Position numbers and translations under genes: made by a program. From a virus (lineage: Duplodnaviria > Heunggongvirae > Uroviricota > Caudoviricetes): 14,452 bases of DNA. Under the pieces are notes generated by a model that did not search any database, was not told the DNA's origin, and saw only the letters and a program-made list of their open reading frames with translations. The stretch lies in IMG/VR virus record IMGVR_UViG_2724679538_000001; one strand, written 5' to 3'. Positions 770 through 14,452 of the stretch are shown one piece after another; the stretch's first letter is position 1, and every line of letters starts with the position of its first letter.

Positions 770-3327
770 CGTCCACCTCCGGAGAACAGACCACCATCGC
801 GCATCTGTGCCTGGATTTCATCACGGGCACCCTTGCGGGCCATGTCATACACCGCCTTCATCATCTGTGGACCTGGCAGACCATTCGTACCGTCGTTCTG
901 AATCACCACGTTGTTGTTCTGCTCAAATCTGATACCCTCTGAACGCCGCATTTGCGCCGGACTTCCGGTGCCACCGACATAACCGCCGGTGGCATAGCCG
1001 CGCATCAGCCGGTAGAGATTCCCCACGCCAATCCGGCTGGTTGCCTCCTTAGTGAAGACAAATTCACCACGGTGAACAATCCCCGCTGGCTCATATTTGC
1101 CGCCGGTTCCCGTAAATCCTCCGGTCGCAAAATGGAATTTCGCCGCAGCTGCCTGAATGGCTGTACCGCCTGACGCTGATGCGCCGCCACCAACAGCCCC
1201 GCCAATGGCGCTGCCGATACTCCCGACAATCCCCACCATTGCCTGCTTAAGCAGAATTTCTGTCATCATGGACAGCACGGAGCGGGTGAAGCTGCGCCAG
1301 TTCTGTTCACTGCCGGTCAGCATCGCCGCCATATTCTGCGCAATACCATCAAAGGTCTGCGTGGCTGCACTTTTAACCTGCGACATACTGTCCGTGGCGC
1401 TCTCTTCCCACTCACTCCAGCCGGACTTGAGGCCTGCCATCCAGCTCCCGCGAAGCTGGTCTTCAGCCGCCCAGGTCTTTTTCTGCTCTGACATGACGTT
1501 ATTCAGCGCCAGCGAATTATCGCCATACTGTTCCTTCAGGCGCTGTTCTGTGGCTTCCCGCGCTGCCTGCCGGTCAGTAAGCCCCCGGTTTTTCGCCTCA
1601 ATGGCTGCCCGTTTTGCCCGTTGCTGCTGTGCGAATTTATCCGCCTGCTGCGCCAGCGCATTCAGGTGCTCCTGATACGTAACCTTGTCGCCCAGTGCAG
1701 CCAGCTGACGTTTGTACTCCAGCGTCTCGTCTTTATGCGCCAGCAGGGATTTCTCCTGTGCGGACAGCTGGCGACGTTGTGCCGCCGCCTCCAGTACCGC
1801 AAACTGACTTTCCGCCTTCCACAAATCCCGGCGCTGCTGGCTGATTTTCTCATTCGCTCCGGTATGCTTTTCCAGTGTCCGGAGTTCTGCCTGAAGCGCC
1901 AGCAGGGCAGCATGAGCACCATCTTCCTGACGATCGCCCGCAGACACCTTCACGCCGGACTGTTTCGGCTTTTTCAGCGTCGCTTCATAGTCCTTTTTCG
2001 CTGCCGCCATCAGCGTGTTGTAATCTGCCTGCAGGATTTTTCCGTCCTTCAGTGCCTTGTTCAGTTCTTCCTGACGGGCGGTATATTTCTCCAGCGGCGT
2101 CTGCAGCCGTTCGTAAGCTTTCTGCGCCTCTTCGGTATATTTCAGCCGTGACGCTTCGGTATCGCTCTGCTGCTGCGCATTTTTGTCCTGTTGAGTCTGC
2201 TGTTCAGCCTTCTTTCTGGCGGCTTCAAGCGCAAGACGGGCCTTTTCACGATCATCCCAGTAACGCGCCCGCGCTTCATCGTTAACAAAATAATCATCCT
2301 TGCGCAGACTCCAGATGTCGTCCGCTTTCTTAAACGCAGCCTCTGCCTTAATTAGCATCTCCTGAGCGGTATCAGGACGACCAATATCCAGCACCGAATC
2401 CCACATGGATTTGAATGCCCGTGCTGTCCTGTCTGCCCAGGTCTCCAGCGTGCCCATGTTCTCTTTCAGGCGGCGGGTCTGGTCATCAAACCCTTTCGTT
2501 GCGGCCTCGTTCGCCGCCTGCAATGCCCCGGCTTCATCTCCGGAACGCTGCAACTGAGCAACATACGCAATCTGCTCCGCCGTCACGTTATGGAACTGAC
2601 GTGCCATCGCTGTCAGTCCCGACGTCGGGTCTGTGGTCAGCTTCCCGAAGGCTTCAGCGACCTTGTCCACCTCCACGCCGGATGCAGAGGAGAAACGCGC
2701 CACACTCTGGCTGATCGCCTCAAACTGCTCACCACCACGCACACCGGCATTCACCAGCGCCGTCAGTGACTCGCTGGTCTGGTTAAACGTCAGCCCTGCC
2801 GCCTGCCCGGCTCTGGACAGGGCCAGAATACGATCTGCCGTCAGTCCCGCCTGATTGCCGGAAAGGACCAGCGTTTTGTTGAAATCGGACAGGGTTGAGT
2901 TGCCCTGATACCAGGCATACGCCAGCGCACCGGTCGCCACCGCCAGCGAGGTGGCCCCTACCATCGGCAGGGTGATCGCACCGGCAAGCCCCCTGAACAT
3001 GGGGATCATCCCGCCGAAGGAGTCCTTAACCTGACCACCCTGTTGCAGCAGGATCAGCCACGGACTTTGCCCGCCTGCAAGCTGCGTGGCCACGTCGGTG
3101 AACTGTGCAGGCAGCATACGCATGGCGGCTTTATACTGCCCGACGGAAATCCCCGCTTTCTGTGCAGCCAGCGCCTGTCGGCTCAGCGACTGTTCAACGA
3201 TTGTCGCTGTTTTTTTCGCATCACTTTCCGTACCGGAAAAATGACGCCTGACTCTGGCCATCTGCTCGTCAAACCTGGCCGCATCCAGACTTAAATCAAC
3301 GACCAGATCGCCTACCGGTTCAGCCAT
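766..3327 (-). CDS. H: Tail tape measure protein H (853 aa)
   Basis: ORF 766..3327 (-), 853 aa, exactly the lambda gpH length. It has a coiled-coil, Ala/Gln/Lys-rich middle and a Gly-rich C-terminal region. A strong SD (GGAGGAG) precedes the ATG at 3327, and the start overlaps the T-frame stop by 8 nt as in lambda. Confidence 0.95.
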   Translation of the reverse strand: MAEPVGDLVVDLSLDAARFDEQMARVRRHFSGTESDAKKTATIVEQSLSRQALAAQKAGISVGQYKAAMRMLPAQFTDVATQLAGGQSPWLILLQQGGQVKDSFGGMIPMFRGLAGAITLPMVGATSLAVATGALAYAWYQGNSTLSDFNKTLVLSGNQAGLTADRILALSRAGQAAGLTFNQTSESLTALVNAGVRGGEQFEAISQSVARFSSASGVEVDKVAEAFGKLTTDPTSGLTAMARQFHNVTAEQIAYVAQLQRSGDEAGALQAANEAATKGFDDQTRRLKENMGTLETWADRTARAFKSMWDSVLDIGRPDTAQEMLIKAEAAFKKADDIWSLRKDDYFVNDEARARYWDDREKARLALEAARKKAEQQTQQDKNAQQQSDTEASRLKYTEEAQKAYERLQTPLEKYTARQEELNKALKDGKILQADYNTLMAAAKKDYEATLKKPKQSGVKVSAGDRQEDGAHAALLALQAELRTLEKHTGANEKISQQRRDLWKAESQFAVLEAAAQRRQLSAQEKSLLAHKDETLEYKRQLAALGDKVTYQEHLNALAQQADKFAQQQRAKRAAIEAKNRGLTDRQAAREATEQRLKEQYGDNSLALNNVMSEQKKTWAAEDQLRGSWMAGLKSGWSEWEESATDSMSQVKSAATQTFDGIAQNMAAMLTGSEQNWRSFTRSVLSMMTEILLKQAMVGIVGSIGSAIGGAVGGGASASGGTAIQAAAAKFHFATGGFTGTGGKYEPAGIVHRGEFVFTKEATSRIGVGNLYRLMRGYATGGYVGGTGSPAQMRRSEGIRFEQNNNVVIQNDGTNGLPGPQMMKAVYDMARKGARDEIQAQMRDGGLFSGGGR

Positions 3328-4158
3328 ACCGGACTCCTCCTGCGATCCCTTCTGAGACTGTCATCAGCATTACGTCATCCTCTGTCATATCCACCACATC
3401 CGGGGAAACGGTGATAACCTCATTCCCGTCCGGGCCAAAGCGGACGCCTCCGGCAAGCCCTGCCGCTTTCTGCATCAGCACATCATCTTCAGGCTCTTCG
3501 TCAGCCTCGCGCCGGTTCAGCAGACTGAAATCCAGCGGATGCATATCCGGATCGCTGAAAAACAGGCTGAGCACGGTATATGTCAGCCCGGAAAAGTGCA
3601 TATCCAGCAGAACATCATGAAAATAATGGGTACTGTAAAAGCGGTGCCAGTCGGCATACTCCGTGGATGACATCCCGGCAAGCATGGCGCGCCAGTCGGG
3701 TCGCCCCATCTCACGCGCCAGTTTCAGGGCAAAACTCAGCTCACCGTCGAACACTTTCCCGCAGAAACAGGCTCTGCTGGCCCGGCGTCATCTGCCTGTT
3801 CAGGTGCATCATTCACAACAAACTCAGACATACCGGACAGACGCATTACCACATTTTCAGCCTGAGCAATTGCCTCTGTGGGCCAGGTGGTAAGCACTTC
3901 CTGCTCAATTTGTTTAACGGCTTCATTCATGGACGGCATCTTTGTCTTCTGCGGATGGTTATGCCACAGGGACATCGCCACCAGAAAAGCACCGGTTCTG
4001 ACGAGATCTTCCACGCTCACCTGTCGATTGAGACTGGATCCCGCCTGTTCTGCCTGTCGTTTCAGCAGGGCGAGATGCTCAATTCGCTGCAGGGCTGACA
4101 GTTCAGAAAGCGTGACGCTCACACCGTTATATTCAAATGATTCGGTTTTCAGGAACAT
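3320..4158 (-). CDS. G-T: Tail assembly chaperone G-T fusion, made by a programmed -1 ribosomal frameshift at 3754..3760
   Basis: The T reading frame (ORF track 3320..3754) has no independent start context. It becomes continuous with G after a -1 slip at the heptamer GGGAAAG (minus strand), giving ...GKVFDGELSFALK.... This is the canonical lambda G/GT arrangement. Confidence 0.85.
3736..4158 (-). CDS. G: Tail assembly chaperone G (140 aa)
   Basis: ORF 3736..4158 (-), 140 aa (MFLKTESFEYNGV...GKCSTVS), the same length as lambda gpG. SD GGAGAG lies about 7 nt upstream of the ATG at 4158. Confidence 0.92.
   Translation of the reverse strand: MFLKTESFEYNGVSVTLSELSALQRIEHLALLKRQAEQAGSSLNRQVSVEDLVRTGAFLVAMSLWHNHPQKTKMPSMNEAVKQIEQEVLTTWPTEAIAQAENVVMRLSGMSEFVVNDAPEQADDAGPAEPVSAGKCSTVS
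3754..3760 (-). promoter_or_regulatory. Slippery heptanucleotide G GGA AAG for the programmed -1 frameshift (G to G-T)
   Basis: The minus strand reads GCG GGA AAG TGT TCG ACG GTG AGC TGA in the G frame. The X XXY YYZ motif GGGAAAG lies 8 codons before the G stop, and the -1 frame stays open for a further 144 codons. Confidence 0.85.
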
Positions 4159-6268: not shown

Positions 6269-6664
6269 TTATTGCATTCTGGCCAGGCCGCGCTCTGTCA
6301 TTTCAGCTGACACACCGGCAGAGACACGGAACGCCGTTCCCGGCAGCACAAATGCCACAGCCTCATCCCGCGTGGCGTGAAGTGCATCAGTATGCAGCGT
6401 CACCAGTGCCACAACCGTGACCAGATCAGCCGTATCAGTCACGGTATCCGGCTGCGCTGATACAACCTCATTTTCATGCCCGGTCAGCGCATTTTCCGGG
6501 CTGACAGGCGTGTCCTGGCCGGAAGTGTCATCCGAGTCATCAAGCTCCTCTTCCAGCTCTGCCACACGGAGCGCCAGTTCTTCCTTCGTCCCCGTCAGGC
6601 TGACATCACGGTTCAGTTGCTCACCCAGCACCTGAAGACGGGCAATCAGTTCATCTTTCGTCAT
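6269..6664 (-). CDS. FI: DNA packaging and head assembly protein FI (131 aa)
   Basis: The track ORF 6269..6703 (144 aa) is over-extended. The lambda-equivalent start is the ATG at 6664 (MTKDELIARL...) with SD GGAGGAG 6 nt upstream. The product is one codon shorter than lambda gpFI by coordinate arithmetic, with an acidic Ser/Asp/Thr-rich central linker. Confidence 0.85.
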   Translation of the reverse strand: MTKDELIARLQVLGEQLNRDVSLTGTKEELALRVAELEEELDDSDDTSGQDTPVSPENALTGHENEVVSAQPDTVTDTADLVTVVALVTLHTDALHATRDEAVAFVLPGTAFRVSAGVSAEMTERGLARMQ

Positions 6665-9448: not shown

Positions 9449-13129
<3,681 letters not shown>

Positions 13130-13155
<26 letters not shown>

Positions 13156-13675
13156 TCAGCAACCCCGGTATCAGTTCATCCAGCGCGGCTGCTTTGTTCA
13201 TGGCTTTGATGATATCCCGTTTCAGGAAATCAACATGTCGGTTTTCCAGTTCCGGAAAACGCCGCTGTACCGAGAGAGGGATCCCGTCAAGAATACTGGC
13301 AATTTCACCTGCGATCCGTGACAGCACGAAAGTACAGAATGCGGTTTCCACCACTTCTGCGGAGTCTCTGGCATTCTTCAGCTCCTGGGCGTCAGCCTGC
13401 GCACGCGTAAGTCGATGGCGTTCGTACTCAATAGTCCCAGGCTGGAGATCTGCCTCGCTGGCAGCCCTGTAATCCTCAACCTCTTTACGGAGTTTTTCAT
13501 TTTCGATATCAGCTTCCCTCTGCGCATACCACTGAATTGCCATGGCGGTATCAAATACAGATTCAACGCCCTTACCACCTCCGGAGACGCAAGGGAGTCC
13601 CTGAGACTGCCAGCGTTCAATCGTTCGCGGATCCACGTTGAAAATTTCGGCAAGTTTCTTTTTATTAACCTTCAT
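13130..13675 (-). CDS. Nu1: Terminase small subunit Nu1 (181 aa); the N-terminal DNA-binding domain diverges from lambda while the C-terminal two-thirds are lambda-like
   Basis: ORF 13130..13675 (-), 181 aa. Residues from about 75 onward ([60 protein letters not shown]...) match lambda Nu1 as recalled. Residues 1 to about 70 ([41 protein letters not shown]...) differ at many positions from lambda (MEVNKKQLADIFGASIRTIQNWQEQGMPVLRGGGKGNEVLY...). Confidence 0.92.
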
Positions 13676-13699
13676 GAAACAGTCTCACAATAAATACAG

Positions 13700-13811
13700 G
13701 GTCCGACATGAAAGTGCCCGAAAATGACTTTTTTAGGCGTTTTCATGTCGGACCTTTACGGATTCGATATTAGAAAAAACAAATAGTTATATTCGAGAAG
13801 TACCGACATGA
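13700..13811 (-). repeat. Three copies of a CCGACATG(A) motif in cosB: a 14-bp perfect inverted-repeat pair (13700..13713 and 13741..13754) plus a third copy at 13803..13811. Candidate small-terminase binding (R) sites
   Basis: ggtccgacatgaaa at 13700..13713 and its exact reverse complement tttcatgtcggacc at 13741..13754, separated by 27 bp. ccgacatga recurs at 13803..13811. All lie between cosN and the Nu1 start, where lambda carries R3-I1-R2-R1. Confidence 0.5.
13777..13789 (-). promoter_or_regulatory. Possible IHF-like site (aaacaaatagtta, one mismatch to WATCAANNNNTTR) after an A-tract, between the first and second R-like repeats
   Basis: AT-rich spacer 13755..13800 with an A6 tract and a near-consensus IHF core. 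Its position is analogous to lambda I1. This is a weak motif match only. Confidence 0.25.
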
Positions 13812-13851
13812 TTTTCCCCGGAAAATTTTCATAAATAGCGAAAACCCGCGA

Positions 13852-13863
13852 GGTCGCCGCCCC
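13852..13863 (-). other. cosN cohesive-end sequence (GGGCGGCGACCT on the minus strand) in joined, uncut form
   Basis: Plus-strand aggtcgccgccc at 13852..13863 is the exact reverse complement of the lambda 12-nt cohesive end. The flanking 30 or so bp on the Nu1 side match the lambda left end, apart from a 1-bp difference. Confidence 0.9.
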
Positions 13864-13884
13864 GTAACCTGTCGGATCGCCGGA
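13864..13884 (-). other. cosQ-like region immediately on the right-end side of cosN
   Basis: The minus strand reads GGCGATCCGACAGGTTACG directly upstream of cosN, one substitution away from the lambda right-end sequence as recalled. The exact extent of cosQ is uncertain. Confidence 0.5.
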
Positions 13885-13898
13885 AAGGACCCACAAAA

Positions 13899-13915
13899 TG
13901 ATAATAATTATCATC
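13899..13915. repeat. Perfect 8-bp-arm palindrome atgataat-a-attatcat
   Basis: Read directly from the sequence; it sits in the AT-rich DNA between cosQ and the small plus-strand ORF. Function unknown; a protein-binding site is possible. Confidence 0.4.
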
Positions 13916-14061
13916 TACATGTCACAACGTGCATCTACGCCATCAAACCACGTCAAATAATCAATTATGACGCAGGTATCGTATTAATTGATCTGCATCA
14001 ACTTAACGTAAAAACAACTTCAGACAATACAAATCAGCGACACTGAATACAGGGCAACCTC

Positions 14062-14295
14062 ATGTCAACGAAGAACAGAACCCGCAGAACAACAACCCGC
14101 AACATCCGCTTTCCTAACCAAATGATTGAACAAATTAACATCGCTCTTGTTCAAAAAGGGTCCGGGAATTTCTCAGCCTGGGTCATTGAAGCCTGCCGCC
14201 GGAGACTGTGCTCAGAAAAAAGAGTTTCTCCTGAAGCAAACAAAGAAAAGAGTGTCATTACTGAATTGCTCAGAAAACAGGTCAGACCAGATTGA
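14062..14295 (+). CDS. Hypothetical small basic protein (77 aa) with an Arc/Mnt-like ribbon-helix-helix signature
   Basis: ATG at 14062 with AGGG 7 nt upstream. It is the only substantial ORF in this AT-rich segment. The stretch NIRFPNQMIEQINIALVQKGSGNFSAWVIEACRRR parallels Arc (NLRWPREVLDLVRKVAEENGRSVNSEIYQRVMESF): a beta-strand with Arg/aromatic/Pro, helix A, a Gly turn, then helix B. The N-terminus is Arg/Thr-rich. Coding status is not proven. Confidence 0.4.
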   Translation: MSTKNRTRRTTTRNIRFPNQMIEQINIALVQKGSGNFSAWVIEACRRRLCSEKRVSPEANKEKSVITELLRKQVRPD

Positions 14296-14339
14296 AGCAA
14301 TTTAGATAATCGTGCAGACTACGCCCTGATGAATCCCCT

Positions 14340-14361
14340 AATGATTTTTATCAAAATCATT
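14340..14361. repeat. Imperfect palindrome aatgatttt-tatc-aaaatcatt downstream of the small ORF
   Basis: 9-bp arms with a 4-bp spacer, read directly from the sequence. It is AT-only, so unlikely to be an intrinsic terminator; an operator-like site is possible. Confidence 0.3.
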
Positions 14362-14452
14362 AAGTTAAGGTAGATACACATCTTGTCATATGATCAAATG
14401 GTTTCGCCAAAAATCAATAATCAGACAACAAAATGTGCGAACTCGATATTTG

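Follow-up and report, generated by a model that had tools for sequence, protein, structure and literature searches.

The window, i.e. the entire stretch of 14,452 nt analysed here, contains the left arm of a lambda-like phage on the minus strand, with window position 13862 corresponding to lambda bp 1. Outside of the divergent block described below, this arm of 13.86 kb is 96.5% identical to lambda (over 13.9 kb), and the genes W through H come after the terminase gene A. The small terminase subunit TerS (Nu1) belongs to the Phage_Nu1 family (PF07471; 302.6 bits at a cut-off of 30, residues 1–164 covered), and in the large subunit TerL (gpA) the gpA ATPase and endonuclease domains were recognized (PF05876 at 173 bits and PF20454 at 251 bits). 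Both reading frames are intact, of full length and with full Pfam coverage, and they overlap by 26 nt. With a small subunit, a large subunit and the cosN sequence GGGCGGCGACCT with an upstream cosQ, the locus encodes a cos terminase of the lambda-like Nu1/A type. The right end of the phage was found beyond cos (13863 to about 14330); the window therefore has cos in its interior, an arrangement seen in prophages and in permuted records. In the right-end region (14210..14452), similarity to lambda stops near 14210 and similarity to phage PhiR42_1 near 14330, which is another mosaic boundary. A 77-aa ORF (14062..14295, plus strand) resembles YlcI/YnfO (DUF3950) proteins, and its positional counterparts in strain 272 and E2348/69 are annotated as such.

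The region was reverse-complemented and aligned to lambda (DE3/J02459) and to phage 21 (M81255), and the feature table of M81255 was mapped onto the window to locate the cosB sites. The following features were assigned:

13886..13892, minus strand: cosQ (GGGTCCT), conserved in lambda, phage 21 and the present phage, from the alignment with M81255 and the lambda right ends
13851..13862, minus strand: 12-nt cohesive-end sequence of cosN, GGGCGGCGACCT, with lambda-type surroundings (13819..13871)
13819..13833, minus strand: position homologous to the IHF site I2, identical to lambda, last conserved segment before the block
13798..13813, minus strand: R3, 21-type TerS box AATCATGTCGGTACTT (phage bp 50–65), 15/16 to R3 of phage 21 and 8/16 to R3 of lambda
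13777..13791, minus strand: I1, IHF site between R3 and R2 (phage bp 72–86), 14/15 to I1 of phage 21
13741..13756, plus strand: R2, 21-type, in opposite orientation to R3 and R1 (phage bp 107–122), 16/16 to R2 of phage 21
13698..13713, minus strand: R1, 21-type box (phage bp 150–165), 14/16 to R1 of phage 21
13675..13130, minus strand: TerS (Nu1), 181 aa, from ORF and Pfam Phage_Nu1
13472..13675, minus strand: TerS codons 1–68, winged-HTH DNA-binding domain of 21 type, 88% aa identity to gp1 of phage 21 and 60% to lambda Nu1
13456..13497, minus strand: junction or linker zone, TerS codons about 60–73, with lambda-type and 21-type sites intermixed
13130..13462, minus strand: TerS residues about 72–181 and stop codon, lambda-type oligomerisation/TerL-binding part, from aa comparison
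11230..13155, minus strand: TerL (gpA, gene A), 641 aa, lambda-type, from ORF and Pfam GpA_ATPase and GpA_nuclease
13093..13134, minus strand: TerL codons 8–21, a second, small divergent patch in which six residues differ from lambda QVNRLRHFVRAGLRS

The alignment and identity scan that had been proposed together with the original prediction showed that identity to lambda is not uniform:

13860..13990, right end of the phage: 92.4% to lambda, 60.3% to phage 21
13817..13871, cosN region: 98.2% to lambda, 92.7% to phage 21
13471..13816, divergent block: 59.2% to lambda (205/346), 87.3% to phage 21
13130..13470, rest of Nu1: 94.1% to lambda, 57.8% to phage 21
12300..13129, part of A: 96.7% to lambda, 69.9% to phage 21

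The divergent block extends from 13818 to about 13463–13484. Starting 5 bp ahead of R3 and ending at TerS codons 65–71, it consists of R3-I1-R2-R1 of cosB and the winged-HTH domain of TerS. When the whole 13.86-kb arm was scanned in steps covering 100 bp, it was the sole long stretch with 52–62% identity to lambda. At a background of 3.5%, the binomial tail for at least 141 mismatches in 346 bp is about 1e-108 to 2e-108. Short patches of lower identity exist at 819..1018, 2669..2818 (gene H), 3969..4118 (gene G) and 6419..6515 (gene FI) in the arm that is otherwise at ~96%; within the 3′ part of H, identity falls to 64% over 100 bp. In a megablast search, phage 21 (M81255) gave a single continuous match that spans cosN and the region up to and including the 5′ part of gene 1. 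A still closer relative of the block, at 94–96% identity, is a prophage of E. coli M19, whose remaining terminase is of the 21 type. In bins of 40 bp, the window is M19-like at 35–40 of 40 positions from 13892 to 13493, while in the bins outside of the block it is lambda- and PhiR42-like at 35–40 of 40 positions.

The original prediction had placed ~370 bp strongly unlike lambda at 13450..13819, flanked by lambda-like DNA. These coordinates were right within ~10–20 bp, and the flanks are 94–98% identical to lambda near the block and somewhat less (92.4%) at the right end. It had further equated the block with the R-site-bearing part of cosB plus the DNA-binding domain of Nu1, in agreement with the position of R3 5 bp inside the block and with its end at codons 65–71. 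The return to lambda-like sequence in Nu1 had been expected from about codon 75, again within ~10–20 bp of the true switch. The left end of the phage is lambda-like as predicted, but the length of ~30 bp given for this stretch was too short, as the conserved sequence reaches lambda bp 45. The relation of the block to phage 21 is an addition made here; before, it had been characterized only as differing from lambda.

No other part of this region varies as much across lambda-like phages as cosB and the TerS N-terminus do, as would suit rapid evolution in situ from a lambda-type ancestor without any exchange. Such divergence would, however, not converge on another phage at synonymous and non-coding positions, and the block matches phage 21 (87%) and the M19 prophage (94–96%) over its full length while reaching only 59% to lambda. 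Moreover, the affiliation changes abruptly, within 2 nt at the left edge when phage 21 is the reference and within ~20 nt at the right edge. For these reasons in-situ divergence was rejected, and its probability appears negligible to us.

The cosB segment shows the complex organization of the 21 class, with three R boxes, an inverted R2 and an IHF site between R3 and R2. The R boxes are located at exactly the coordinates known from phage 21, with the same orientation and spacing. The core CATGTCGG is present in R2 on the strand opposite to R3 and also in R1; cosB has three copies of it, while chance would give about 0.5 over the entire window. One more copy of this core was noticed at 13234..13241 (plus strand, phage bp 622–629), in the inverted orientation and within the lambda-type part of the TerS gene. 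It was rejected as an R site because lambda has the identical sequence there and one extra copy is compatible with chance. The I1 site has one mismatch to the IHF consensus WATCAANNNNTTR (bottom strand, phage bp 74–86). At bp 56 and 59 of R3 the window has G and G, as in phage 21, where lambda has T and C. Differences from phage 21 were found at one position of R3 (bp 54, A instead of G) and at two positions of R1, and cosB outside of the boxes is ~82% identical to phage 21.

Lambda and phage 21 share cosQ and cosN, yet each packages its own DNA >1000-fold better (Feiss and co-workers; PMC4669245). This discrimination has been attributed to residues 20 and 24 of TerS together with bp 56 and 59 of R3; for example, Glu24 of lambda clashes with the G:C pair at bp 56 of R3-21 (PMC4669245). 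In the window, TerS has E20 and S24 as in phage 21 (lambda: Q20 and E24), and all four published determinants are of the 21 type. TerS residues 9–29, including the recognition helix, are identical to phage 21. Two structures could be aligned to the N-terminal domain: PDB 1J9I, the DNA-binding domain of lambda gpNu1, to residues 1–68, and PDB 7LWR, a 54-residue chain identical to residues 1–54 of 21 gp1, to residues 1–54; a literature search on the code 7LWR gave unrelated papers only. Judged by its R boxes, I1, the recognition helix and the positions of the published determinants, the block is assigned to the phage-21 specificity family.

The remainder of the terminase has a different affiliation. 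TerS residues 69–181 are 96.5% identical to lambda at the aa level and 50% to phage 21, and in the last 41 residues, the TerL-binding end, 40 are the same as in lambda. A 21-type C-terminal domain accompanied by a 21-type TerL is absent, with TerL DNA at ~70% identity to phage 21. By these comparisons cosQ, cosN, TerS residues ~72–181 and TerL are classified as lambda-type, in line with the original prediction, according to which the C-terminal part of Nu1 and A had remained lambda-like (96.7% for A at the DNA level).

The cassette is not an exact copy of that in phage 21. Eight of the 68 residues differ, including K32G and S34G in the wing loop (SGGGKG versus SKGSKG in 21) and A30V beside the wing. 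The wing of lambda TerS contacts the minor groove near R3 (PMC9026076). Together with the changes in R3 and R1, these substitutions would be in accord with a 21-related cassette that has drifted to a specificity of its own, apart from both lambda and 21, and the M19 prophage possesses the same wing variant, pointing to a stable sub-lineage. On the other hand, phage 21 is matched throughout residues 9–29, which include the recognition helix, and at the four published determinants (residues 20 and 24; bp 56 and 59), R2 is identical at 16/16 positions, the core CATGTCGG and the spacing of the boxes are unchanged, and K35 of the wing is conserved. We therefore regard a separate specificity as improbable, and the same specificity as that of phage 21 as likely in spite of the differences between the cassettes. 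The possibility that the GGGKG wing is a lambda-derived patch inside the block was rejected as well, because the M19 prophage has the same wing without having lambda-type terminase parts.

With phage 21 as the reference, the left switch appears to be placed very precisely, with lambda-type positions at 13821 and 13819 and 21-type positions at 13817 and 13816. However, a crossover at 13819/13817 was rejected, as this precision is an artefact of the chosen reference. The M19 prophage differs from lambda in the segment cosQ-cosN-I2 (13892..13819) solely at window position 13846. Because cosQ-cosN-I2 is conserved in all types and uninformative with M19, the left crossover is placed only within ~75 bp, between 13892 and 13819. 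On the right side, mixed lambda and 21 sites occur at 13484..13463 (codons 65–71), followed by unbroken lambda-type sequence from 13462 on. The linker (13456..13497) fits neither lambda nor 21/M19 cleanly but is a micro-mosaic with a unique Tyr69, nearest to the TerS gene of the E2348/69 prophage with about 5 mismatches in 44. All chimeric loci that were compared (IdasGreatGrand, strain 272 and Sakai Sp11) have one and the same junction sequence. This common junction fits a single ancestral event followed by spread, while the mosaic nature of the linker may indicate a history with more than one event or with unsampled parents.

The chimera is widespread. The full chimeric segment of 742 bp was covered to at least 80% in 540 of the 5,426 complete E. 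coli genomes, with the top matches being 99–99.9% identical, and the 121-bp junction was found at ≥95% identity in about 547 records, including prophage Sp11 of O157:H7 Sakai (ECs_2180). In the same set of complete E. coli genomes, a pure lambda-type cosB-Nu1 segment exists in 3,910 genomes, mostly as the nohD/nohA remnants of DLP12/Qin, which provide lambda-type cos sites in ~72% of complete E. coli genomes. Pure 21-type cosB-Nu1 was found in 634 genomes, so the chimera (~540) is about equally common. Beyond prophages, the module is present at 99.6% identity in phage IdasGreatGrand (PP925829), deposited as an environmental isolate from swamp mud with E. coli as host; its similarity to the window (98.3% identity) extends from position 13895 down to 10100 or beyond. 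The near-identical module in a deposited phage and the intact reading frames in hundreds of prophages are indirect indications that the chimera may support phage growth. In the searchable literature we found no paper describing a natural lambda/21 specificity chimera or its frequency, nor a description of IdasGreatGrand and Sakai Sp11 as such chimeras.

These distribution data bear on whether the mosaic might be a lambda-21 hybrid from the laboratory, a product of misassembly or the relic of a prophage whose cos and terminase no longer cooperate. Its architecture is the same as that of the engineered hybrid hy51, and many lambda-like prophages of E. coli are defective (PMC2669165). Yet the flanks differ by 3–8% from laboratory lambda and the block by 13% from phage 21, the identical junction occurs in about 540 independent complete genomes and in the swamp-mud phage record, and TerS and TerL are intact, of full length and with full Pfam coverage. 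Laboratory hybrid and assembly artefact were rejected on the grounds of the divergence from both parents and of the junction shared by hundreds of genomes, and taken together we consider explanations of this kind highly unlikely.

The mosaic structure, the identity of its parts and its spread are direct observations, whereas packaging specificity, IHF dependence and the route of recombination are inferred. We consider it highly probable that the locus is a natural recombinant, in which a 21-family cassette consisting of cosB and TerS codons 1 to ~64–71 was combined with an otherwise lambda-type cos and terminase, with a 21-like packaging specificity predicted for the product.

Related prophages illustrate the modular behaviour of this cassette. 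The M19 prophage matches the window at 94% in cosB and at 96% in the part coding for the DNA-binding domain, but has the 21-type TerS C-terminus and TerL. The presence of the same cassette on a 21-type tail shows its exchange as one unit, and thereby supports the original prediction of a swap of recognition specificity following the lambda-versus-21 pattern. Like the M19 prophage, that of CFIA combines the 21-type cassette with a 21-type tail. In the CFIAFB20180511 prophage (locus L005, about 1100..1365), 21-type R boxes and DNA-binding domain are present without GGGCGGCGACCT, and the sequence at the position of cosN is different; therefore cosB cassettes also pair with different types of cosN.

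A third type of cassette, joined to the 21-type TerS C-terminus and TerL, was found in prophages of E2348/69 (locus L010, upstream of the CDS 1061..1609) and STEC316 (locus L008, upstream of the CDS 1063..1611). Its R boxes read CAGATCC(G/T)TTCT and the recognition helix of its TerS DVRTIT(A/G)WQSQG, and this class of cosB and DNA-binding domain may confer yet another, so far uncharacterised, packaging specificity. With the junction query, matches at 80–90% identity were obtained in about 214 E. coli records, with E2348/69 among the sampled ones. In every combination of cassettes seen, the sequences of box and recognition helix change together, and across the cassette types the TerS aa sequence is shared again from the linker that follows the DNA-binding domain. 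Three or more types of cassette were observed (lambda, 21 and the E2348/69 type with CAGATCC boxes), and the conserved ENEKLR linker may have served to join them to two or more TerL-binding tails.

TerL contains a further deviation from lambda. Apart from codons 8–21, the gene has no 100-bp stretch with <88% identity to lambda, whereas in this patch (13093..13134) 13 of ~48 nt are unlike lambda. Every chimeric locus examined has the patch; of the phage records, the chimeric IdasGreatGrand alone contains it, while the lambda version is found in about 77 lambda-type phages. The patch lies in the N-terminal part of gpA, through which gpA of lambda binds Nu1; it may accompany the chimera through linkage or be a compensatory adaptation to the hybrid TerS.

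In the mechanism proposed by analogy with lambda and 21 (PMC4669245, PMC9026076), the recognition helices of a chimeric TerS dimer, being of 21 type, would bind to R3 and R2, two boxes of the same type that IHF would draw together by bending the DNA at I1. The lambda-type tail of TerS would then recruit the lambda-type TerL, which would nick the adjacent lambda-type cosN and start packaging and translocation, while cosQ would serve termination. Phage 21 needs IHF for growth, and packaging of the chimera would depend on IHF, too. The cassette was probably moved by homologous recombination in its conserved flanks, which are cosQ-cosN-I2 on one side and the ENEKLR linker on the other, and cutting at cos could aid such recombination. 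In crosses of lambda with DLP12, recombination was frequent near cos, and half of the mapped junctions adjoin cos (PMC3945230).

The lambda/21 combination may have been favoured by avoiding wasteful packaging starts at the cos sites of nohD/nohA in DLP12/Qin. A joint reading, in which a cassette of cosB and the TerS DNA-binding domain is shuffled repeatedly, the combination of lambda backbone and 21 cassette is favoured and the TerL patch is compensatory, is in our view doubtful.

The two-domain logic of TerS, with an N-terminal part for DNA recognition at cosB and a C-terminal part for TerL, was derived from laboratory lambda-21 hybrids. Natural recombination uses the same logic, with a junction almost exactly at the domain boundary. 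One consequence is that packaging specificity cannot be read from a lambda-like set of head and terminase genes alone. This matters when cross-packaging between prophages of the same host, as in the prophage pool of O157, or interactions between helpers and satellites (PICI) are predicted, and when a cosmid or helper system is chosen. The understanding of the packaging mechanism itself is left unchanged by the chimera. The mosaicism of lambdoid phages and the two-domain logic of TerS were known before, the laboratory hybrid is decades old, and the chimera sequence has been public since the Sakai genome.

Among the closest known systems are prophage Sp11 of Sakai (ECs_2180/ECs_2179) and IdasGreatGrand. 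They contain the same chimera with the same junction and are 98–100% identical to the window across cosB, TerS and the start of TerL, but both differ from it to the right of cosQ, with IdasGreatGrand diverging beyond 13895. Compared to lambda (Nu1-A of J02459), the window differs in the box core (CATGTCGG versus CGTTTCC), in the DNA-binding domain (60% identity) and in the six residues of TerL 8–21. With phage 21 (M81255) it shares the R3-I1-R2-R1 architecture, the boxes and their spacing, the recognition helix and the determinant residues and base pairs; it is unlike phage 21 in TerS residues 69–181 (50%), in its lambda-type TerL, in the lambda-type positions 13821 and 13819 and in the wing, which is GGGKG and not KGSKG.

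A precedent for function is lambda-21 hy51, which has a lambda background with the phage 21 versions of cosB and of the 5′ part of the TerS gene and is viable and 21-specific (PMC4669245, PMC9026076). A hybrid of this type is viable and 21-specific because each protein-DNA and protein-protein interface is internally matched, and the TerS of hy51 works with TerL and the head genes of lambda. The window resembles hy51 in having a 21-type cosB and an N-terminal HTH domain fused in frame to a lambda-type TerS C-terminus, together with a lambda TerL. By analogy with hy51, the phage is predicted to package cosB-21 DNA and to discriminate against cosB-lambda. There are also clear differences. In hy51, which resulted from a laboratory cross of lambda with 21 (Feiss laboratory), ~600 bp of the left end were replaced, compared to ~340–355 bp here. 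Unlike in hy51, the cassette in the window is a diverged variant of the 21 family (87%), the backbone is a wild relative of lambda (~96%), and the junction sequence is common to hundreds of natural prophages.
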